Of a DNA stretch of 48,853 nt, positions 1-46,130 are shown piece by piece. The position numbers and the translations under genes were made by a program. Origin of the DNA: a virus (taxonomy: Duplodnaviria > Caudoviricetes); the IMG/VR virus record IMGVR_UViG_3300027265_000001, positions 1 through 48,853 of that record; one strand, written 5' to 3'. The notes beneath the pieces were generated by a model. The model did no database searches. It saw only the letters and a list, made by a program, of their open reading frames with translations, and was not told the DNA's origin. Each line of letters begins with the position of its first letter. Position 1 is the stretch's first letter.

Positions 1-127
1 AGCTACGTTGCAGAGTGCCAGAACAGACATTCAGCAAACTAACACTTTTTTGAACGAATCTAACTCTCACCTTGGAGCAATAGAGAGTGCGGCGAACGTA
101 GTTGCTAACAAGGATATTGCTTCGGAT
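1..127. repeat. Terminal direct repeat, copy 1 (assembly circularisation overlap)
   Basis: 1-127 is identical to 48727-48853; 127 nt equals a common assembler k-mer length; the repeat lies inside a gene. Confidence 0.95.
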
Positions 128-379
128 GCTACTGCTTCATCCATCTATAATCTTTTGCCAGAAATTGTTAAAGAAGAATACAAATACCAGATGTATGCCG
201 GTCCGATTACCGAAGATGGATTTCTGTATATCTGTAAGATGATTCGTGGCGGTAGCTATTTTATCAAACGAAAAGTGCTAGCGACTGGACTATGGGAATA
301 TTACGAAGATGGAAGTGATGTTATTGGAGGATGGGCCGCCAGAGCGACTCACACCTATCACCAGTGGGGGAGTAACTAA
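8..379 (+). CDS. 3' part of the junction-spanning hypothetical virion protein
   Basis: Open frame continuous with the ATG at 48602; stop overlaps the next start (TAATG). Confidence 0.8.
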   Translation: MQSARTDIQQTNTFLNESNSHLGAIESAANVVANKDIASDATASSIYNLLPEIVKEEYKYQMYAGPITEDGFLYICKMIRGGSYFIKRKVLATGLWEYYEDGSDVIGGWAARATHTYHQWGSN

Positions 380-5939: not shown

Positions 5940-7033
5940 TGGCTGAAGTCACTCTCACTTGTCGCTCAGTTCCATACATTGCGGCCGGTAAATGGTCTCG
6001 TTCGGGTGGAACCCAGAATGGGGCCTCAGCTGCCGAAGCTCTCTCGGCTCTCCAAACTTATGAGCCGGGCTCTTCTACTGGTTATATCTACAGAAAAGGC
6101 TCTACAGCGGGAGCTAATCAGGATGAACAAACTCTAGATGTGCTGATGTCTGATCCGGGAGTAAACGGGACTGTCACTGGAATACGAATAAATGCCATTA
6201 TCTCTGTTGGTAATACCAGTATGTCGGGTCACTATTGGGCGAACCTTTACAATAACCGCACGGGCGGTTGGGGGACTAGGGTAGACACGGCTACTAATTC
6301 ATGGGATGACATTCCATGGTCTCCGGGTGGGGCTGGTAACATCTGGGGTCTAGCGCTGAATGACCTAGATATTCATAATATCAAGGTCTCTCTTGGAGCT
6401 CATACTAATCCGGGAAGTGGTGGCTATACCTATGATACGGCTTACCAGTATCTCACCGTGACCGTATACTACACTCCTAGCTACACGAAGACTGCTTCTT
6501 GTGATGCTGCTCTTTGGAAACTTCAGAGCAAACTACTATCGATGGACGCTAAGTTGTGGAAGCAACAAGTGATGACGTGCTCAGCTGACGCCCTATTATT
6601 CAAACGCAAAACATTACTAGCTTCACTTGACGCCAAACTGTTCAGAGGTGGTATCTTAAATCTATCCATGGATGCCCTACTTTGGAAGCAGCAAATTAAA
6701 ACTGTTTCTATGGACGCTTTTCTAGTCATTCCAAAAATACTGAATTGTTCATTCGATGCTCTCCTCTATAAGACTCAGGTGAAAACTGTCTCTATGGACG
6801 CTTTTGTGGTTTGGACTAAGACGAAACTCACTGGGATGGACGCCTTACTCTGGAAGGCAGAGAAAGAGCGAATGCGTAATACCGTTACTACCAGAATAGT
6901 CCCGAATGTTGATGTTATTACTGAGAGGATAACGGCATCTTCTGACAATAAGGCACCGGCTACTGGAATTGAGCATAAGATAGGCGATAAACCATCTATA
7001 GCAATTGTTAATGACCCTAGAAAAATGGTATAA
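5939..7033 (+). CDS. Virion protein with a beta-rich N-domain and nine 14-aa S[MLCAF]DA.L repeats
   Basis: GAGGA RBS; tandem repeat visible in the translation. Confidence 0.7.
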   Translation: MAEVTLTCRSVPYIAAGKWSRSGGTQNGASAAEALSALQTYEPGSSTGYIYRKGSTAGANQDEQTLDVLMSDPGVNGTVTGIRINAIISVGNTSMSGHYWANLYNNRTGGWGTRVDTATNSWDDIPWSPGGAGNIWGLALNDLDIHNIKVSLGAHTNPGSGGYTYDTAYQYLTVTVYYTPSYTKTASCDAALWKLQSKLLSMDAKLWKQQVMTCSADALLFKRKTLLASLDAKLFRGGILNLSMDALLWKQQIKTVSMDAFLVIPKILNCSFDALLYKTQVKTVSMDAFVVWTKTKLTGMDALLWKAEKERMRNTVTTRIVPNVDVITERITASSDNKAPATGIEHKIGDKPSIAIVNDPRKMV

Positions 7034-11642: not shown

Positions 11643-11664
11643 AAAAATGGTATAATATATATAG
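11643..11664 (+). promoter_or_regulatory. Recurrent extended -10 promoter for the ejection-protein operon
   Basis: AAAAATGGTATAATATATATAG in an intergenic gap. Confidence 0.75.
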
Positions 11665-11695
11665 GTAATCGTGTTCGGCAGAAACAGGATTAAGA

Positions 11696-17100: not shown

Positions 17101-18891
17101 GTAAAGCAATACAGAGCTAAATCTACCAGTAAATACCTCAAGAATGTTGATGTTACCGATGAAGAAGCAGATCAAGTTCTGAAACTATCTAAGGTGGCAA
17201 TCGAGAACCGTAAGGTCATCGACACTCTAGACCCTGCTCTTCTAGACGTTCCACTAAGCAAAATCGATGAAGCTACTGATGCCACCCTCCTAGACTACGG
17301 CCGAGCTCAGGTTGCTATGAATGATTATATTAAATTGCTCCAAGACCCTACCAAGGATATGGGCATTATTGATACTGCTAAAAATACTGACTGGATGGAT
17401 GTGGCAAAGCACCCAGTGAGAACACTATTTGATGCTTCCGGTATCTCAAAGGCGCTTAACTCTTCGATGGATGATTCGGGTATCTTCAGACCGGGTATCA
17501 AGATGCTTGCCACTAATCCTAAGGAATGGGCTAAGAATGCTGGTCAATCATTCATCGACATCTTCCATGAGTTTGGTGACAAGAATGCGATGGATGAGCT
17601 CGATGCGTGGATTGTCTCACGTCCTAAATATATGGATGGGACTTACAAGAAAGCTAAACTGGCCGTTAACGTCACTGAAGAAGCATTCCCATCATCTCTA
17701 CCAGAAAAACTACCTAGCTACCTAGGGAAAGCTTTCAAGGCATCAGAAGCCGCCTTTACCGGCCTACAAAAAAGAAATAGAATTTACGCCTTTGAAAAAT
17801 GGCTACAACTTGCCAAAGATGACGGGGTTGAACTAACTGAGCAGAGGATGCGTAATATCGGCTCACTGGCCAATTCTCTCACAGGACGTGGAAATCTAGG
17901 CAAAGCTGAAGGCATCGCTGATACTCTAAATAAGACTTTTTACTCATTCCGCAACCTGAAGGGTAACTGGGATACTATCACTGCTCACGCTTTCGACAAG
18001 GGGATGCGTGTTGATACCAAGGGCATTGAGTCTCAAGATATGTGGGCTCGCAAGCTCGCGGCTAAGAACCTGATTAAAACCGCCGGGACTATTGGTGGCG
18101 CCCTAATGGTTGCTGATATGATTGCACCAGATAGTGTGGAATGGGACCCTCGCAGTTCAGATTTTGGGACTATCAAGGTGGGTAATACCAGATTTGACAT
18201 CACTGGTGGTATGAAATCAATCGTCACTCTAGTAGCTCGCGGAATGATCTCTCCGGACTCTGAGGGTAACTGGGGCATCGGACGAACTAAAAGCTCCACC
18301 ACGGGCCTCGTATCGCCTCTGAATACAGGTGAATACGGTGCTAAGACGGTGAAGGATGTCGCGGTAGACTTCTTCGGTAATAAGCTCTCCCCTATCGCTG
18401 GACAGGCTCGTGATTGGATACTAACAGGAACTGACTTTGAAGGTAACAAGCCTACGATTGCGAATAGTGCTTTGAGCCTAGTCACTCCGTTCCCAGCTTC
18501 ATCAGCTCAAAAGACTCTGAAGGATCCAAATGCTGCTCCGTTCGTCCTGACAATGTTAGCAGACGCCCTTGGAATCGCATCATCTACTTACGGTGGGGTC
18601 AGTGACATCGAACCTAAGACTGTATATAACCTTCTCGATAAAAGCGACAAGATTGATACTCCTGGCGATGGTAAGACCGTAAATGACTCAAAGACTGTTA
18701 TCCAACAAATGAAAAAGCGTGGCGCTAGCGATGAGTTTATTCGTAGTATGCTTGAACAATACTACGCTGACACTGCCGCCAAGGAGAAGGCCGGAGATGC
18801 TTCAAAGGGACAAAAGCCAAACCCACATTATAAAGTAGATAAAAAAGCCAAAGCTGAGCGCACCAGAATGCTCAACGAATTGTTAAATTAA
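14116..18891 (+). CDS. Large internal virion/ejection protein (large polyvalent-type)
   Basis: 1591 aa, Ala-rich with hydrophobic Gly/Ala segments; C-terminal 'WDPRSSDFGTIKVGNTRFDITGG' and 'LSPIAG..TGTDFEGN' blocks; last gene before lysis. Confidence 0.7.
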   Translation: MGKLLSWLTTDLTDEEKKKFSEAYIDPTTPEVGAFSGPGTTLINSAEAPLMPKYVPRDMNASEGATYVNPMSNGAEAIERFGATAGVSALDVPVKIATGVGRGINWAAEKLLGKDVIDTANGGNQFYDNIDQGWQDLTKAQRDVGSGADETAAFDKKYQQTLDVWNAIPEDKKAAALAENPVLAENLRLYQEEAATKVVRDQVGQIATTAGAIAGTAAATIPIGGAAGMAAAAATPGIIAPAVTGLLANVAADTAAGQAAWRESDVIEKGTKITGNKIVDDLLADMSTRKGTLLADSLLGLFSEGLGSLSKVDDAAKGYVGAIGSINNAKMLAKQATKTDNNMTKAIKVMKNLGYSDEEISTIYNSIEAARPKNAAKGMGAAVENIDQFAKETGQRSDLFNEALGISPDQMSDLGNKALPAPSHATRAAIATDNMKVPEFSNRNLQAPELPQTGNKELLATTIGKSKAKKAEMDAWMWKNGEATSELNGINSKALDITDKASRAKFLNNAYDEVRAKYVDKYVQETSGPAADLSKQTQLKALEAGGVDTTDLDKASNAAVQDVYETQLKTGRLKNVDMTQVQPTAAEVTKAASKQEAAGARQYIDSLFEEEFNSGNITNLDDLASFIGDDTVAKAIKASAELDPDGHDAFLKQLKQNAQGIVKFNNDGAKIALDAWKESPFYTLIKDSRIKKVLKQLDNNESPTIFGRTGNQSAIDEIAQQFSDDYGMGDGSVNDFLQALEDWNASKPIKGATQTQKAAGALVRNTNMMGAVAGVETDENGNLKIDPTKSMLGIVGATAGPKVLGAISDSRITKGVDELIDAAGARTTKTVQELMSVDPRLKAMIGEVKPVAAPKVAKLSKAEEAFDAAATSVNPEKGVSKLGADIAKRFEDFEGDTALYDIKHVTSQEAMTEHFVNTNFEGAVRAMDNLDEIPEGMSETMLYKAIKDKAIELDDGALLNRLANSKLTSQSSKHAQELRFMQEIDPTDPVAALSRVKQYRAKSTSKYLKNVDVTDEEADQVLKLSKVAIENRKVIDTLDPALLDVPLSKIDEATDATLLDYGRAQVAMNDYIKLLQDPTKDMGIIDTAKNTDWMDVAKHPVRTLFDASGISKALNSSMDDSGIFRPGIKMLATNPKEWAKNAGQSFIDIFHEFGDKNAMDELDAWIVSRPKYMDGTYKKAKLAVNVTEEAFPSSLPEKLPSYLGKAFKASEAAFTGLQKRNRIYAFEKWLQLAKDDGVELTEQRMRNIGSLANSLTGRGNLGKAEGIADTLNKTFYSFRNLKGNWDTITAHAFDKGMRVDTKGIESQDMWARKLAAKNLIKTAGTIGGALMVADMIAPDSVEWDPRSSDFGTIKVGNTRFDITGGMKSIVTLVARGMISPDSEGNWGIGRTKSSTTGLVSPLNTGEYGAKTVKDVAVDFFGNKLSPIAGQARDWILTGTDFEGNKPTIANSALSLVTPFPASSAQKTLKDPNAAPFVLTMLADALGIASSTYGGVSDIEPKTVYNLLDKSDKIDTPGDGKTVNDSKTVIQQMKKRGASDEFIRSMLEQYYADTAAKEKAGDASKGQKPNPHYKVDKKAKAERTRMLNELLN

Positions 18892-21106: not shown

Positions 21107-21413
21107 AATTTAGGATGTCGTTGAGTGCTTTCGTTACTTTGGTGGATTTAGTTCTGGCCGGTTTATCTCTAGTGGGGCGGATCCTCACTGATTTGATTGG
21201 CGTTTTGTATTCTTCTTCCCACGAGAATAGGATGAGACCGAGATCGTGGGCTCGTTCGATGTTGGCGTGGACCCAGTCGTGATGCCTACGGCAAAGAGGG
21301 CACTTATTGGCTTCTCTGTCCGAGCCTCCTTCGCTCCTTTGCTTGATATGATGCCTATCTGTAAAAAGTGCGCCACAATGATCTACAACACACGGTCTAT
21401 ATTGACTTATCAT
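21105..21413 (-). CDS. HNH endonuclease
   Basis: C..C, DRHHIKQRSEGGSD..N.CPLCRRHH motif. Confidence 0.85.
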   Translation of the reverse strand: MISQYRPCVVDHCGALFTDRHHIKQRSEGGSDREANKCPLCRRHHDWVHANIERAHDLGLILFSWEEEYKTPIKSVRIRPTRDKPARTKSTKVTKALNDILN

Positions 21414-21543
21414 CGGTAGTATTCTTGAAGACTACTCGATCTGTATATTCAGCTTTTTTACCCTCGTTCCAGTTTGACACCGGTCTGATGTAGCCGACTA
21501 CACGCGAATAGACCTCACATTTAGTTCTTGATTCGTTAGACAT
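21397..21543 (-). CDS. Stand-alone NrdD-type glycyl-radical domain (48 aa)
   Basis: CEVYSRVVGYIRPVSNWNEGKKAEY.DR matches the class III RNR C-terminus; AAGGGGGAG RBS before the ATG at 21543. Confidence 0.85.
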   Translation of the reverse strand: MSNESRTKCEVYSRVVGYIRPVSNWNEGKKAEYTDRVVFKNTTDDKSI

Positions 21544-21565
21544 ATCTCCCCCTTCTTTTATTAAC

Positions 21566-21608
21566 TGTGGATAAACCCTTGACAAAAGTGACACAAGTGT
21601 GGTATACT
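21566..21608 (+). promoter_or_regulatory. DnaA box followed by a sigma70-type promoter (TTGACA-N18-TATACT, extended TG)
   Basis: TGTGGATAA 21566-21574; TTGACA 21579-21584; TGGTATACT 21600-21608. Confidence 0.75.
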
Positions 21609-21614
21609 GCTAAT

Positions 21615-21707
21615 CCCTGAACAGGTGTTCGGCATTTACCCACCGCATAGGGTCAGCGGCTATAGGCGTTCGAGTGAAAGTTCCCCTCTCACTGGAGCGT
21701 CTTTTTT
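21615..21707 (+). ncRNA. Candidate small RNA of about 90 nt
   Basis: Lies between a consensus promoter and an intrinsic terminator (AGGCGTTC.AGTGA...TCACT.GAGCGTCT-TTTTT, 21664-21707); carries GGTGTTCGGCA. Confidence 0.6.
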
Positions 21708-22332: not shown

Positions 22333-22407
22333 TGGATCCCGAGGTAGGGGTCGAACCTACAATACAGAGCTTCAAAGGCTCCTGCCTTACCATTTGGCTA
22401 CTCGGGA
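22333..22407 (-). tRNA. tRNA-Gln(UUG)
   Basis: Cloverleaf TCCCGAG/CTCGGGA, loop CT-TTG-AA, TTCGA T-loop, encoded CCA. Confidence 0.9.
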
Positions 22408-22410
22408 ATA

Positions 22411-22496
22411 TGGTGTCAGAGGGGAGAGTCGAACTCCCAATCCGCTGAGGGCACTAGTTTCTAAAACTAGCGTGTATACCATTCCACCACTCTGAC
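22411..22496 (-). tRNA. tRNA-Leu(UAG)
   Basis: GTCAGAG/CTCTGAC, loop TT-TAG-AA, long variable arm, A73, CCA. Confidence 0.92.
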
Positions 22497-22498
22497 AT

Positions 22499-22576
22499 TG
22501 GTGGGCCCTGAAGGACTCGAACCTTCAATCCGGCGGCTTTTGAGACCGCTGCGTCTACCAGTTGCGCCAAGGGCCC
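22499..22576 (-). tRNA. tRNA-Leu(CAA) with a short variable region
   Basis: GGGCCCT/AGGGCCC, loop CT-CAA-AA, 6-nt variable region, A73, CCA. Confidence 0.85.
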
Positions 22577-22577
22577 G

Positions 22578-22653
22578 TGGTCGAGATGCTGGGATTCGAA
22601 CCCAGATGGCCTCCGTCACAGGGAGGAATCCTAGCCGTTAGATGACAGTCTCG
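22578..22653 (-). tRNA. Atypical tRNA with a GUG (His) anticodon
   Basis: Loop CT-GTG-AC, CTGGG-TTCGAAT-CCCAG T-arm, CCA; bulged acceptor stem. Confidence 0.75.
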
Positions 22654-25689: not shown

Positions 25690-25911
25690 CTAACTCCCAT
25701 CAGGGACTTCGGTAAAGTCGATATAATACGACCTACCGATTTCGAATGATACTGCCTCATTCTTCACCGTCATCGTTAGATTGCCAGCCGGAGTAGTCCC
25801 AAAGAACATTTCATTCTCGGGGCTTCCAGATGTCACTGGACTAAACTCGTAGGTTACAGCCCAAGTGGTTTCCTTTTTCGACACGCAGGTAAATTTTGCT
25901 CTTACCATCAT
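25690..25911 (-). CDS. Conserved small beta protein (VRAKF...SPENE.FF.TTPAG...YYIDFT)
   Basis: ATGA overlap with the phosphoesterase gene; pattern recalled from other phage hypothetical proteins. Confidence 0.7.
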   Translation of the reverse strand: MMVRAKFTCVSKKETTWAVTYEFSPVTSGSPENEMFFGTTPAGNLTMTVKNEAVSFEIGRSYYIDFTEVPDGS

Positions 25912-26408
25912 TTCTCTCTTTCTTGTATAAAATTCTTTAATAATACCGGTTGATAATCTGTGTATTCTAGGGCCAGAAGCTTATTGAATTTTCTAGTCAC
26001 TATGTTGGCGTGATGCCCATTAGCATCGTGCATGTGGCCATGGATGTTGATGTCGAACGATCCGTCCCATGCTATCGGGATGTGAGTAAACGCGATGCGC
26101 TTACCGAACATCTCGAACTGGAATCTGTCTACCACGGCATCCCAACCATTGTTGAGATACCAGTGTATTGTTTTGCGGTCATGGTTGCCCTTGACGAGAA
26201 TCGTTCTACAACCTAGCTCTTCTTTGAACCAGTTGCTATTTTCTGAATCTGCTCCGATGCAGATGTCCCCTAGATGGATGAGAAGATCCCCCGGTTTCAC
26301 GTTTCTTCTTAACGCATTCTTGATCTTACACTCAAAGTCCTCTGGTCGACCAAAGGCTACTAGAGCCTCGTGAGAAAAATGAGTATCCGTTGTCAGCCAT
26401 ATTTTCAT
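25908..26408 (-). CDS. Calcineurin-like metallophosphoesterase
   Basis: DTH, HLGD, GNHD, TH and HGHMH motifs. Confidence 0.92.
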   Translation of the reverse strand: MKIWLTTDTHFSHEALVAFGRPEDFECKIKNALRRNVKPGDLLIHLGDICIGADSENSNWFKEELGCRTILVKGNHDRKTIHWYLNNGWDAVVDRFQFEMFGKRIAFTHIPIAWDGSFDINIHGHMHDANGHHANIVTRKFNKLLALEYTDYQPVLLKNFIQEREK

Positions 26409-26410
26409 TG

Positions 26411-27568
26411 TTACCCCTTCACTACTGCGAGAGGAGTGAGCGTGTGGACGATCTCCACTAGGTCCTTCTGATTCTCCATTACTACCTCGATGTCTTTGTA
26501 TGCTCCCGGTGCTTCATCAAGCTGGTGGATGCCACGGACCCCGTGTAGCACTCCCATTGCGTCAAGCGCGGCTACTTCAGCTTCCAAGTCAAGGCGTCTC
26601 TCAGCATCTTTTCTGCCCATTTTTCGTCCTGCTCCATGAGAACAACTATTAAAAGACTCATGATTACCCAAGCCACGAACAATATAGCTTTTGCTTCCTT
26701 GGGAACCCGGGATAATCCCGATATTTCCTGCACCCGCATAAGTGGCTCCTTTCCTGTGAACCATAACGTCTTTGCCGTAGTGGTGCTCCATCTTGGCATA
26801 GTTATGGGCGATGTTAATAATCTCATCGAACTCAGCCCCAAGCTCTTTGCTCTTAAAGATGTCGATGACGGCATTCATCATGTGCTTACGGTTGGCTAGA
26901 GCGAATTCAACACAGTAGTTCATGTCCATGATATAGTCTTTGCCTTCGACTGAATCCAGTGGCAGGAAGGCTAGCTCATGTTTCTTTGGAATTTGTGAAA
27001 AATACTGTTCATTTAATTTCACAGCTATCTTGTTGTGATGGTCTGCGACTGTTTTCCCTAGGTTACGAGAACCTGAGTGAATCATAATCCAGATGTGGCC
27101 ATCTTCATCCTTCTGGATCTCGATGAAGTGGTTACCACCTCCGAGGGTCCCGAGAGACTTCCGGGCGTTGTTGTATTGCTCTGGTATCACTGACCCGAAA
27201 TCTAACTTAGGCATCAGGGCCTCGTCCTGCATTTCTTGGTGCTTGTTGAATCCCAGAGGAATCGCATTACGAATCTCTCCAACGATTTCTTTCAGCACAT
27301 CGATGTCTAGGTAGGTAAGTGAAGTCCGGACAGCACACATCCCGCATCCGATGTCTACACCGACTGCGTTCGGGATGACTACGCCCTTGGTAGCGATAAC
27401 GCCACCGATAGGCATGCCGTATCCTTGATGGCTATCTGGCATGATGGCAACGTGATGAAGGATGAAGGGAAGCTCAGCCAAGTTTTTAGCTTGGGCCATT
27501 GCCCCGTCCTCAATATCATCCAGCCATAGGTAGATTGGGAATCTTGTTTCTTCTGCTATTACTTTCAT
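26411..27568 (-). CDS. rtcB: RtcB RNA ligase
   Basis: MPDSH, VGVDIGCG, GTLGGGNHFIE, HSGSR, HNY, HRKGA, SHGAGR, DEAPGAYK. Confidence 0.97.
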   Translation of the reverse strand: MKVIAEETRFPIYLWLDDIEDGAMAQAKNLAELPFILHHVAIMPDSHQGYGMPIGGVIATKGVVIPNAVGVDIGCGMCAVRTSLTYLDIDVLKEIVGEIRNAIPLGFNKHQEMQDEALMPKLDFGSVIPEQYNNARKSLGTLGGGNHFIEIQKDEDGHIWIMIHSGSRNLGKTVADHHNKIAVKLNEQYFSQIPKKHELAFLPLDSVEGKDYIMDMNYCVEFALANRKHMMNAVIDIFKSKELGAEFDEIINIAHNYAKMEHHYGKDVMVHRKGATYAGAGNIGIIPGSQGSKSYIVRGLGNHESFNSCSHGAGRKMGRKDAERRLDLEAEVAALDAMGVLHGVRGIHQLDEAPGAYKDIEVVMENQKDLVEIVHTLTPLAVVKG

Positions 27569-29729: not shown

Positions 29730-29749
29730 CAGCTCCCCTCTTCCCCTTA

Positions 29750-30229: not shown

Positions 30230-30304
30230 TGGCGGTCCCTAGCAGAATCAAACTGCTGCTTCCACAGTGACAGTGTGGTGTCATACTCACTAGACCAAGG
30301 GACC
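30230..30304 (-). tRNA. tRNA-Asp(GUC)
   Basis: GGTCCCT/AGGGACC, loop CT-GTC-AC, G73, CCA; T-loop TTTGATT. Confidence 0.85.
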
Positions 30305-30305
30305 T

Positions 30306-30389
30306 TGGTGACAGAGGTAGGAATCGAACCTACACAGCAATTGCGACTGGTTTACAGCCAGCGAGACTCACCACCTGTCTAACTCTGCC
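30306..30389 (-). tRNA. tRNA-Tyr(GUA)
   Basis: GGCAGAG/CTCTGTC, loop CT-GTA-AA, long variable arm, A73, CCA. Confidence 0.9.
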
Positions 30390-37033: not shown

Positions 37034-37070
37034 TTGACATCTATATACTATATAATATATACTATATATA
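37034..37070 (+). promoter_or_regulatory. Promoter for the ncRNA/tRNA-Pro/terminase transcript
   Basis: TTGACA 37034; TATAAT 37051 and TATACT 37058. Confidence 0.65.
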
Positions 37071-37356
37071 GAACACTGAGCCAATTTAACGATTTGCTGT
37101 ATAACCAGTGCTCTGCTATGTGGGTCTGAGAGTTTGGCTACCCCCTTTCTCTCGGGCACACTACCATGAAGCGAGACCCCCGCAGGGGGATCAACGATGG
37201 GGAGGGTCCATCCCGCTTCACCTTAAAAATTTAGATTCTGGGCTTCAGGCGGGGTGATAGGACAATCCTCATGAGATTGTCTGAAATTGGTAAATCAGCC
37301 GTTCGCGGTTGTGGGGAAGTCATGAGCCTAGGGCACCCCACCTAAAGCCCAGAATC
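37071..37356 (+). ncRNA. Block of structured non-coding RNA elements
   Basis: Four consecutive closed domains, including TGAAGCG/CGCTTCA and GATTCTGGGCTT/AAGCCCAGAATC stems; no ORF. Confidence 0.6.
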
Positions 37357-37437: not shown

Positions 37438-37471
37438 AAATTATAACTAAACAACAGAAAGAAGGGTTCGG

Positions 37472-42547: not shown

Positions 42548-42563
42548 AAGAAAGGGGTTCGGC

Positions 42564-43074: not shown

Positions 43075-43092
43075 AAAATGATATAAATTGCT

Positions 43093-43500
43093 ATGCTAAG
43101 AAAATGCCAAACATGTGGGACTCGGTTATTTGGAAGGAAACGAAAGTATTGCGACAAAAGATGCTATCCTTCCATGACTTATGCTGCACGAAAGAAGTAT
43201 ACAGGCCCGTATAGTCGCACCGAGACTGGACGATACAAATCATACCAGCAAGGAGCTAAACTAAGGGGTGTAGAGTTCAGTTTAACAGAAACACAGTTTA
43301 AGAGTCTTTGGCAGCTACCCTGCTCATATTGTGGAGATCCGATCGATACCATAGGAATAGATCGTGTGGATAATTCTATTGGATATATCGTTAGTAACAT
43401 CACCCCTTGTTGTGGAGTTTGTAATAGGATGAAGCAACAAAAGACTGTTGCAGAGTTCAAAAATCATGTTAAAAAGATGGTGGACTACATGAAATTGTAG
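43093..43500 (+). CDS. HNH endonuclease (homing-type)
   Basis: CQTC..YCDKRC N-terminal zinc; CSYCG..GIDRVDNSIGY...NITPCCGVCNRMK. Confidence 0.88.
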   Translation: MLRKCQTCGTRLFGRKRKYCDKRCYPSMTYAARKKYTGPYSRTETGRYKSYQQGAKLRGVEFSLTETQFKSLWQLPCSYCGDPIDTIGIDRVDNSIGYIVSNITPCCGVCNRMKQQKTVAEFKNHVKKMVDYMKL

Positions 43501-43556
43501 TATAATATATAGTATAGACAACGCACATTCCACAATTTGCACCTAGACAACACAGA

Positions 43557-43651
43557 GTGTTCGGCAACTATCTGTAAGCTATTTTAGCTTCTGAAGGACT
43601 GCCGAACACCCTTCAGAGCTATAACGGCTTCCAGATAGGAGCCGTTTTTTT
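43557..43651 (+). promoter_or_regulatory. Attenuator-like leader with alternative terminator and antiterminator folds
   Basis: Downstream of TATAAT 43501; long hairpin 43568-43638 overlaps terminator 43623-43651; GTGTTCGGCA/TGCCGAACAC complementarity. Confidence 0.7.
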
Positions 43652-43660
43652 ATGTTTATA

Positions 43661-43729
43661 AACCGCCTAAGCCTTCACAAGAAGGAGGGCAGGAATAATC
43701 TAACCGCCTAAGCTCGCACAGAGAGGGCA
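43661..43729 (+). repeat. Tandem hairpin motif AACCGCCTAAGC...GAGGGCA, two copies
   Basis: Copies at 43661-43691 and 43702-43729. Confidence 0.8.
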
Positions 43730-43745
43730 AAGAAAGGACAGTAAG

Positions 43746-44789
43746 ATGTCAATGAAACCAGACTTAGTCGCACCCGAGGAGAACGTAACCGAAATCAATC
43801 TGGATGGGCCAGATGCCGAGGACGTAAAAACCGGAGACGCTGATGAAGATCAGTTCAACGGGGAAAACATCCTAGATGATGAAAAAGACCAAAAAATCAT
43901 GGAGGCTTTCGGACTGAAACCAGAGGATGTGAAAGAAGAGGTTGATCCTGATGAGAAGAAGGATCCGGAATCGGACGAGGACAAACCTGAGGTAACTGAA
44001 ACTCCAGAGGAGAAGGAAGCCAAGGAGAAAGAATCGAAAGAGGACGTGAAAGAACCCGTTACTATAGATTGGGAATCTGAAGAAAATCCTTATAAAAGGG
44101 ATTACAACGCTTCAGCCCGAGAAGTAAACGAAGTTCTGTTACCCGCTAAAGTAGAGCGTGACGCCCTTCTAGCCGAGAAAGCATCTCGAGGAGACTGGGA
44201 AAAGGAACGTGACGAAATCCGTGGGATACTCAGGAGCAATCCTGAACTGACAAAGATGTTTCTCGAGCAATCGGAAGTATATGTGCCAGCTCCTACAGAA
44301 AAGCCAGCAAAGGTTAGCAACGAGATCGACCCATCCGTCATAGACGCTGCGGTTGAGAGAAAGCTTGGACCAGCAGGTCTAAAAGCTATCGAAGATGCTA
44401 AAGCTGCCGCCGAGAAGGAAACGATGGACGCCATCGGAGCCTTTGAGACAGCTCACCCGGGCCTTACCCGCGAAGAAAAGGGTATCATCGCAACACAGAC
44501 AGCGATTTTGCAGTCTACTCTGAAACTGCCATTGAATGAAGCTCTCGAGCGCTCATTCAAAGCTACTTACCCAGAGAAGGCAAACGAAGCTGAGCGCAGG
44601 GAAATGGAAGAAGCCGCTCGGGTCCGTGCTGCAAAGCGTGATGGAGCCGTGATTACAACTACAGGGGCATCTCATTCTCAGGGTTCGAAACCTGCTGCAC
44701 CTCAGTTAACTGCTAAGGAGATTAAGATCGCCAAGGCATTCAAGTTGACTCCAGAGGAAATCGTAGCTGGTCGTGATACCGAAGAATAA
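43746..44789 (+). CDS. Capsid scaffolding protein
   Basis: Highly acidic N-terminus, helical body, C-terminal 'LTAKEIKIAKAFKLTPEEI' helix-turn-helix; upstream of the capsid genes. Confidence 0.8.
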   Translation: MSMKPDLVAPEENVTEINLDGPDAEDVKTGDADEDQFNGENILDDEKDQKIMEAFGLKPEDVKEEVDPDEKKDPESDEDKPEVTETPEEKEAKEKESKEDVKEPVTIDWESEENPYKRDYNASAREVNEVLLPAKVERDALLAEKASRGDWEKERDEIRGILRSNPELTKMFLEQSEVYVPAPTEKPAKVSNEIDPSVIDAAVERKLGPAGLKAIEDAKAAAEKETMDAIGAFETAHPGLTREEKGIIATQTAILQSTLKLPLNEALERSFKATYPEKANEAERREMEEAARVRAAKRDGAVITTTGASHSQGSKPAAPQLTAKEIKIAKAFKLTPEEIVAGRDTEE

Positions 44790-45224: not shown

Positions 45225-46130
45225 ATGGGAGCTAATAGAAATCAATTTAGTCCACTCCTTTTCAAGGGCCTTCGTAAAGTTTACGATGATGTCTATAAAG
45301 AGTGGCCAGAGCAATTTTCTCAAATCTTCAACGTTCTATCGTCTGAGATGTCTGAGGAAACTGACTACAGCGTAACTGGATTCAAGCTACTGGACAAGGT
45401 CAACGAAAATGAGCCAGTAAACTACCAAGATGCGCTGCCCGGTTACAGTGTAACCTACAAGCATGATACCTTTAAGGGTGGTTTCACCGTTACTAAGGAA
45501 ATGCTTGATGACGATAAATACAACGTCATGAACAAAAAGGCCGCTGGCCTTGCCAAGGCTGTTCGTAGAACAGTTGAGATCGAAGCTGCTAAGGTCATTA
45601 ACAACGCGTTCAATACAACGGTTGTTACAGGTGGTGATGGCGTAGCCCTTATCTCCGCAGCCCATCCTTCAAAAGATGGTGGCGCTAATCAATCTAACCT
45701 TGGAACTGGTAAGCTCACAGAGCCTAACCTTATCGCTGGTATCCTACAAATGCGTAGCCTACTGGACGACCAAGGTCAAAAGATCATGGTTAAGCCAAAC
45801 AAGATCGTTGTTCATCCTTTCAACGAGGCAAAAGCTCGTATCCTGCTTGAGTCTACTCAACGCACGGCTACAGCCAACAACGACATCAACCCAGTAAAGG
45901 GTGCCCTAGATATTATCGTTTACGACTATCTTTCAGCTGCTAATCAGGAATTTTGGTTCCTTATCGATAGCACAATGAACGAGCTAAACTTCTTCTGGAG
46001 AGAAAAACCTTCTTTCAACGAAGAGAACAGCTTCGACACGGATGCTCGTAAATACAAGACACGTTGCCGTTTCTCATGTGGATTCAGCGACTGGCATGGT
46101 ATCTACGGTTCAAACGGGACAACTGCCTAA
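45225..46130 (+). CDS. Major capsid protein (Mu gpT-like HK97 fold)
   Basis: 301 aa; 'GGFTVTKEMLDDDKY', 'GGDGVALISAAHP', 'RFSCGFSDWHGIYGS'. Confidence 0.9.
   Translation: MGANRNQFSPLLFKGLRKVYDDVYKEWPEQFSQIFNVLSSEMSEETDYSVTGFKLLDKVNENEPVNYQDALPGYSVTYKHDTFKGGFTVTKEMLDDDKYNVMNKKAAGLAKAVRRTVEIEAAKVINNAFNTTVVTGGDGVALISAAHPSKDGGANQSNLGTGKLTEPNLIAGILQMRSLLDDQGQKIMVKPNKIVVHPFNEAKARILLESTQRTATANNDINPVKGALDIIVYDYLSAANQEFWFLIDSTMNELNFFWREKPSFNEENSFDTDARKYKTRCRFSCGFSDWHGIYGSNGTTA

Follow-up and report, generated by a model that had tools for sequence, protein, structure and literature searches.

A conserved RNA leader with two alternative folds, a likely transcription attenuator ahead of the head genes in an uncultured tailed phage

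Introduction

Natural RNAs that act in trans as antiterminators include the tRNAs sensed by T-boxes and the small RNAs that block Rho. In the accessible text of PMC8632103, the timing of phage late genes is usually credited to proteins, Q and N among them, or to the cis-acting put RNA. The known trans-acting leader RNAs of phages, such as CI of P4 and C4 of P1, repress, and they do so for immunity.

Several described systems come close to the locus considered here, and they are summarized as the accessible parts of the sources present them. The CI RNA of the satellite phage P4 derives from a leader and controls termination by pairing in trans with matching stretches, seqA and seqC, of that leader as it is transcribed; it terminates transcription of the replication genes, in immunity (PMC4825925). 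The C4 RNA of P1 and P7 presents a short seed in a loop to ribosome-binding sites, and a few bases change its specificity. It comprises three stem-loops with seed loops a' and b', is processed by RNase P and likewise serves immunity (PMC5320573). In IsrK of the Gifsy-1 prophage a short terminated form acts in trans on the read-through form, and refolding activates translation of a downstream ORF (PMC4825925). The engineered STARs are synthetic RNAs that bind the 5' stem of an intrinsic terminator and prevent its formation in trans, so that transcription is turned on; before them, according to this 2015 preprint, no natural or synthetic small RNA that activates transcription was known (bioRxiv 10.1101/022772). 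Cluster K mycobacteriophages carry start-associated sequences (SAS), which are phage-specific, 13 bp in length, and placed before start codons with partial overlap of the ribosome-binding site (PMC3203893).

Here we analyze a leader lying 5' of the scaffold-like and capsid genes in a 48.9-kb record of an uncultured tailed phage. The whole stretch of DNA analyzed, 48,853 nucleotides, is termed the window. As in the CI and IsrK type, the leader contains a complementary target of its own, with 43557-43566 pairing to 43600-43609; a second, seqC-like target 3' of the RNA was not found on the + strand of the window, where no GTTCGG occurs 3' of 43559. Whereas CI terminates, pairing of the 5' segment is predicted here to prevent termination ahead of the head operon, and this activating sign would differ from that of the known phage leader RNAs. 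The leader also differs from CI in forming a single long hairpin, in the presence of a separate candidate small RNA bearing the target tag, and in having no Rfam match. It shares with C4 a seed complementary to ribosome-binding regions, here at six starts of four different genes, but it has a single hairpin with a single loop, would itself serve as an antiterminator too, and the genes that its tags precede are unrelated. In contrast to IsrK the predicted effect is on termination, and there is no sequence or Rfam similarity between the two. Unlike the STARs the leader is natural, and its predicted target is the anti-antiterminator strand rather than the terminator stem. The SAS differ in sequence from the tags described below, and here the same genome encodes an RNA loop complementary to the tag.

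The kinship with CI- and C4-type RNAs raised in a first-pass annotation of this DNA did not extend to a family match. Only tRNAs reached the gathering score of Rfam in the window, and for 43480-43760 the best match (E 0.49) was to an unrelated family, with no match to a riboswitch or T-box aptamer. Judged from its sequence, the leader is CI/C4-like in its predicted action and a member of no known family. A review of phage small RNAs names, in its accessible text, no circuit of the kind proposed below (PMC12197685), and we found no description of a comparable late-gene RNA circuit in the literature searched, which consisted mostly of main texts free of subscription.

Results

Genome context and promoter

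The genes of the window run in the order terminase (38787), portal (40370), a 95-aa and an 86-aa gene, an HNH gene, a gap of 245 nt, a scaffold-like gene and the major capsid gene. The scaffold-like gene (43746-44789, +) is the first that the leader would gate; its assignment is inferred from position and acidic composition, and it has no PHROG match. A 136-aa gene and then the major capsid gene (45225-46130) come 3' of it. Elsewhere, tRNA matches lie at 22336-22652, 30233-30388 and 37361, and a gene for RtcB ligase adjoins that for a phosphoesterase at 25908-27568 (-).

The TATAAT at 43501-43506 (+) is the -10 box of a member of a late-promoter family, TGnTATAATATATATA, and an extended -10 occupies the same position in the related genomes. 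It is positioned as the first-pass annotation described, but it has no recognisable -35 box and the promoter scan does not list 43501. Both relatives read TGnTATAAT at this promoter and have no HNH gene. The TG extension is missing in the window only, and this loss can be explained by the HNH/endonuclease VII-like gene (43093-43500, +; PHROG 1035, E 2e-18), which is inserted in the promoter region and has no tblastn match in the loci of both relatives (L004-L006). Transcription would start near 43513.

The HNH gene is flanked by a degenerate promoter copy (43075-43097) and by the TATAAT at 43501, and the window has additional sequence, lacking in the relatives, that is marked by a direct repeat of 11 nt (43515, 43544). 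Further members of the TGnTATAATATATATA family lie at 7026, 11648, 18914, 21013 and 40160 in the window, the last of these within the terminase gene and kept in all three genomes. Two tandem hairpins with similar repeated internal loops (43661-43727, +) precede the ribosome-binding site of the scaffold-like gene; the pair is similar in G001 and looser in G002, the two relatives introduced below. Scaffold autoregulation is known from phage P22, and by analogy the hairpin pair is possibly a protein site for such regulation.

The leader is predicted to have two mutually exclusive folds

In fold A, the 5' segment GTGTTCGGCA (43557-43566, +) pairs with TGCCGAACAC (43600-43609), both segments lying exactly where they had been annotated. 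The 5' segment is the anti-antiterminator strand and the cis partner of the loop, and its 7-nt core is invariant in all three genomes. Between them an inner hairpin (43576-43590, +) occupies the AAGC strand, which in fold B is the partner of the terminator arm; the inner helix, AAGY/GCTT, is present in all three genomes. Fold A leaves free the predicted intrinsic terminator (43623-43651, +), which is retained in both relatives with changed pairs and a T run. Its position and T run agree with the earlier description, but the stem comprises nine pairs closed by a 6-nt loop (alternatively with one bulge) rather than ten.

Fold B, the antiterminator, is a long hairpin (43568-43638, +) with a basal stem of 43568-43579 paired to 43627-43638 and an apical stem of 43585-43597 paired to 43610-43621. 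The anchoring segments CTATCTG (43568-43574) and CAGATAG (43632-43638) and the apical arms 43590-43597 and 43610-43617 enclosing a 12-nt loop are all found as previously proposed. The loop (43598-43609, +) carries the seed GCCGAAC and is followed by a C/U-rich stem strand that a duplex scan finds complementary to ribosome-binding sites.

Of all folds, B has the lowest computed energy (z -6.3; reached by none of 200 shuffles). There is a second state as anticipated, in that the best fold sharing no pair with B is A plus the terminator. Over 43554-43651 the energies are -41.2 kcal/mol for B and -36.8 kcal/mol for A plus terminator, a gap of 4.4 kcal/mol, and neither energy is reached by any of 500 dinucleotide shuffles (z -6.5 and -8.1). 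When 3902 98-nt segments of the genome were compared, the lowest two second-state energies both belonged to the leader locus, on its two strands. The two folds are very probably a selected RNA element. In all three genomes mutually exclusive folds, one of them with an intrinsic terminator, lie 5' of the operon, and the leader is likely, on this modelling, to be a conserved two-fold RNA acting as a transcription attenuator of the head genes.

The loop costs 0.3 kcal/mol to open in fold B of the window, and 0.3-3.1 kcal/mol across the genomes. A helix of ~30 pairs separates the cis segment from the loop, too far for the two to pair, so the loop should be open in B. A pseudoknot formed in cis on the complete hairpin B was dropped on geometrical grounds, because the helix is too long for a linker of 2-3 nt; a pseudoknot with the apical stem alone is possible as a refolding intermediate. 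A leader-peptide attenuator was also rejected, the 6-codon GTG frame at 43557 having no start codon in the relatives.

Folding order during transcription

Equilibrium folding of growing prefixes gives fold A as dominant (P >= 0.93) to about 43627. B overtakes A at about 43635-43639, and the terminator closes at 43646, the relatives behaving alike (three of three genomes). Because B wins at equilibrium before the terminator is complete, termination would depend on kinetic trapping of A. When its 5' end was extended, the G001 leader returned to A plus terminator at full length. When either the 5' segment or the loop was blocked, A was lost and the apical stem of B formed at once in all three genomes.

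Conservation in related genomes

Two related genomes were found among the matches listed, G001 (locus L004) and G002 (loci L005, L006, L071, L296 and L306, counted once), each with a capsid protein about 84% identical to that of the window. Both keep the two folds. Their states are 3.2 and 3.8 kcal/mol apart (0 of 500 shuffles), so the gap is 3-4.5 kcal/mol over the three genomes. In the alignment of fold B, 97% of cells are paired. In the basal stem both bases of one pair differ, and three of the pairs in the stems have become G-U, which fits an RNA of the + strand. Terminator and apical pairs vary yet stay paired in the relatives. The window loop has one extra A, and there is a matching T in its 5' segment. 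The covariation score did not exceed that of shuffles (291 of 500 reach it), as three sequences are too few for significance; the 7-pair core is invariant.

Wider searches extended this set little. An exact capsid-peptide scan of viral contigs gave three loci, two of them the same virus. Profile scans covered 12 and 27 of the 64 parts of the viral set and 10 of the 64 parts of the metagenome set, and the matches listed were the window itself, L208, G002 again (L306) and relatives of at most 54% identity. L208 is a 79% fragment that ends short of the leader. At the protein level there are capsid relatives of 90% and of 54-60% (P0001 and P0004-P0010). A RusA profile search matched G001 alone. 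Two scans of prokaryote genomes found no relatives of the phage, and the nearest isolate capsid is 46% identical.

The leader element was not found in distant relatives by descriptor, covariance model or inspection of upstream regions by eye. Covariance model R1 gave no new member in 94 of 160 loci (those with little upstream DNA being left out) and 78 further loci. A seed-independent descriptor applied to 163 loci (2.47 Mb) gave nine matches, two of them real (the window and L006); it missed L004 and is therefore insensitive. DNA pattern searches returned three loci without blastn similarity to the leader region; 120 loci from 30 of 64 parts, of which the best-folding 45 were inspected and only the known viruses were real; three loci, one of them real; and 11 loci, five from the known viruses and six unrelated. 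Long irregular hairpins with a T run occur before the scaffold gene in L319, L320, L323 and L324, about 1.4-2.0 kb 5' of the capsid gene, and lack the seed architecture.

Complements of the loop at other sites

The complement of the fold-B loop, with the core GTTCGG, recurs at regulatory sites, comprising the candidate small RNA described below, a late leader and the starts of four different genes. The 10-mer GTGTTCGGCA has two extra exact copies in the window where 0.064 are expected (P 0.002, for a word picked post hoc), and both fall in leaders. At orthologous sites G001 has one further 10-mer (P 0.036) and two further 9-mers (P 0.015); no extra 9-mer was found in the G002 record, which is 58% complete.

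One exact complement (11671-11680, +) belongs to the leader 5' of a LysM gene (11696). It follows the late promoter at 11648 and forms part of a hairpin overlapping the ribosome-binding site. All three genomes have the site. In the window and G001 it tracks the loop; G002 has the letter of the window there, which its own loop mismatches. Activation of LysM translation was considered and dropped for lack of support from folding, in which blocking of the seed leaves the ribosome-binding site not clearly free.

At gene starts the core lies between the ribosome-binding site and the ATG. The 95-aa gene that follows the portal has a ribosome-binding site plus GTTCGGC at 42549-42563 (+) in all three genomes, and ORF 37472 of the window has a ribosome-binding site plus GTTCGG at 37460-37471 (+), its G002 orthologue being without the tag. 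With two other genes of G001 this makes six tagged starts, while 58 other orderings of its six letters each give 0-2. Of 60 GTTCGG occurrences, seven fall at most 32 nt from an ORF start, a zone that makes up 2.2% of positions (p 3e-4); by this association the hexamer ranks 61st of 3993, and the seven occurrences represent three loci and are not independent.

A 17-nt probe comprising the loop and the adjoining stem strand gave the start of the 95-aa gene as the first non-self match in both the window and G002, and regulatory sites are four of the top six in the window. In G001 tagged sites rank 6th, 7th, 9th and 12th among non-self matches, behind G-rich matches, and the start of its 93-aa gene falls outside the top 15.

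A second conserved non-coding element was observed at 37034-37240 (+) of the window, 17880-18090 (-) of L288 and 95-370 (+) of L290. In all three genomes it follows a TTGACA-type promoter, and it contains a C-rich stretch, a paired ATGAAG/CTTCAC frame, the invariant GGGGAGGGTCC and an A run. The first gene 3' of it is tagged with GTTCGG in the window and G001, and the element has no Rfam match at gathering score.

A candidate small RNA

The third exact location of the 10-mer is within a unit that runs from promoter to terminator. A sigma-70-type promoter (TTGACA, 18 nt, TATACT with a TG extension; 21579-21608, +) is followed by a candidate standalone small RNA of ~95 nt (21612-21707, +) comprising a 5' hairpin, the seed GTGTTCGGCA (21625-21634), a 22-nt core (21638-21659) and a terminator hairpin (21664-21707) with a C-rich loop and a T run. 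The unit contains no convincing gene and 21612-21707 has no Rfam match; its sequence makes it likely to be a standalone small RNA. The unit is present in two genomes, the window and G001, where the hairpins are changed and the promoter reads TTGACA, 17 nt, TAGGCT with a TG extension. The region was not found in the 58% complete G002 record, nor was the small RNA found in five distant records.

The small RNA and the leader are 22 kb apart in the window. Each seed is perfectly complementary to the loop of its own genome, over 11 bp in the window and 10 bp in G001 (-20.7 and -21.6 kcal/mol), and is mismatched to the loop of the other genome (-15.8 and -15.4 kcal/mol). The seed is partly hidden within the small RNA, its opening costing 5.3 kcal/mol in the window and 12.5 kcal/mol in G001.

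The 22-nt core is identical in G001 at 21 of 22 positions, with invariant pairs and no covariation; modelling suggests that it may form a small pseudoknot, pairing ACCC with GGGT and CCGC with GCGG. The C-rich terminator loop is found in both genomes. Its best matches in the window include purine-rich stretches before ATGs at 29749 (-), 20193 (+) and 20609 (+), a pattern that is weaker in G001. Divergent from the small RNA lies a stand-alone C-terminal fragment of NrdD (21397-21594, -).

Discussion

A proposed RNA circuit

The first-pass annotation envisaged an RNA-triggered attenuator gating the head genes. The two-state attenuator is supported by folding and by its conservation in two relatives, while the trigger draws its support from sequence, namely exact complements of the loop in the candidate small RNA and other leaders, which track the loop between genomes. 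Where that annotation described a single cis switch, the data favour a small network, with the leader RNA probably as its acting species. That the loop pairs in trans we consider somewhat more probable than the contrary. An open loop matching tags at gene starts and in a candidate small RNA makes it likely, from the sequences, that the phage times its head genes by RNA-to-RNA pairing.

We prefer a model in which leader RNA in the B form would be a trans-acting hub, antiterminating nascent leaders and covering tagged starts, with the small RNA as a sponge; we rate it at slightly under an even chance. All the other sites share the polarity of the 5' segment and the leader loop alone is complementary to them, which in an RNA-only model makes the leader the hub. 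Timing too favours the hub: for ~40 nt of transcription the nascent 5' segment is open to an RNA in trans while the loop has yet to emerge, and an RNA directed at the loop would have to outcompete a strand tethered in cis. In the computed order of events the 5' segment pairs first with the loop sequence, giving fold A and leaving the terminator free. If A persists, transcription would stop near 43650. The released RNA of ~140 nt, or the leader of a read-through transcript, would then settle into hairpin B with the seed exposed, a refolding for which the stability is computed and the kinetics are inferred. B-form RNA may bind nascent 5' segments before their own loop emerges, directing them into fold B and read-through, in positive feedback. 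Its loop and C/U-rich stem strand could also cover tagged ribosome-binding sites and damp those genes, and the small RNA at 21612, bearing the same tag, may titrate the loop and set a threshold. Against the model stands a sample of three independent genomes, only two of them with the small RNA. Counting against it as well are the covariation score, the equilibrium win of B ahead of terminator completion, the partly hidden seed, the LysM results, the lower ranks of the tagged sites in G001, and in G002 the missing extra 9-mer and the untagged orthologue of ORF 37472. The complete form of this scheme, a protein-free autocatalytic timer in which the terminated leader refolds, exposes its loop, antiterminates new copies of itself and silences tagged earlier genes while a sponge RNA of the phage keeps it below threshold, is rather doubtful.

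Alternative explanations

The small RNA at 21612 might instead be the direct trigger, binding the nascent loop, blocking fold A and so turning the head genes on. Its seed tracks best: in both genomes that have it, at least 10 bases in a perfect run pair with the loop of that genome, where the cis segment of G001 pairs nine; blocking the loop does give B, and by reasoning a loop of 11-12 nt could stay paired in trans within B, beyond the reach of the cis segment. Yet the small RNA would have to displace a tethered cis strand without a toehold and pay the 5.3-12.5 kcal/mol for opening its seed. RNAcofold, for which loop-loop contacts are beyond the method, kept the terminator in the pair from the window and gave no seed-loop duplex in that from G001. 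The tags of the same polarity at start codons would also go unexplained, and we regard a direct trigger as improbable. Those tags are readily accommodated if GGUUCGG is the site of an RNA-binding protein of phage or host, such that binding at the 5' segment antiterminates, binding at the starts represses, the small RNA is a decoy and the loop is a mere cis partner. A single ligand then accounts for every site of that polarity, and the core GTTCGG is indeed invariant at all sites in all genomes. The Cluster K start-associated sequences provide a precedent, one whose reader may be RNA or protein (PMC3203893). A protein site, however, makes superfluous the small-RNA bases flanking the core that track the loop of their own genome at two positions, and no RNA-binding family was detected in the 95-aa, 86-aa or other scanned unknown proteins, a blank of little weight. 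We consider a protein reader unlikely, if less so than a direct trigger.

The leader could also work in cis only. Its terminator, leaky or tuned by kinetics, would then fix the ratio of portal-operon to head-gene transcripts, with B a processing or stability signal and the other tags unrelated or aiding translation start. B wins unaided at equilibrium, and terminator-like hairpins were seen by eye before the scaffold gene in L127, L218, L309, L315, L319, L320, L323 and L324; these eight loci are distant relatives without the architecture of the leader. Such a device accounts neither for the exact complements of the loop in the LysM leader and in the conserved unit of promoter and terminator nor for their matching changes, and its probability is as low as that of the direct trigger. 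Very improbable is a metabolite riboswitch or tRNA-sensing switch, despite a layout of aptamer over terminator, the resemblance of the loop to a complement of the tRNA T-arm, and a genome that encodes tRNAs (seven Rfam matches) and an RtcB ligase. No Rfam match of the leader reaches the gathering score or a meaningful E-value, and the conserved unpaired bases are the seed alone. The tRNAs read GGUUCGA, not GGUUCGG, and the extra A of the window loop leaves five pairs with them.

Implications

If the hub model is correct, the leader would be a natural trans-acting RNA activator of read-through at an intrinsic terminator, in the role of Q- and N-type proteins, and a natural counterpart of the engineered transcription-activating RNAs. 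The loop is a candidate reader for start-associated tags that have so far gone unexplained. The whole circuit would consist of two RNAs of about 100-140 nt and sigma-70-type promoters, so that the identity of the host is not needed in vitro. Activation of an operon by its own leader RNA, with another RNA of the phage titrating that leader, would represent a new logic for the passage from early to late gene expression.
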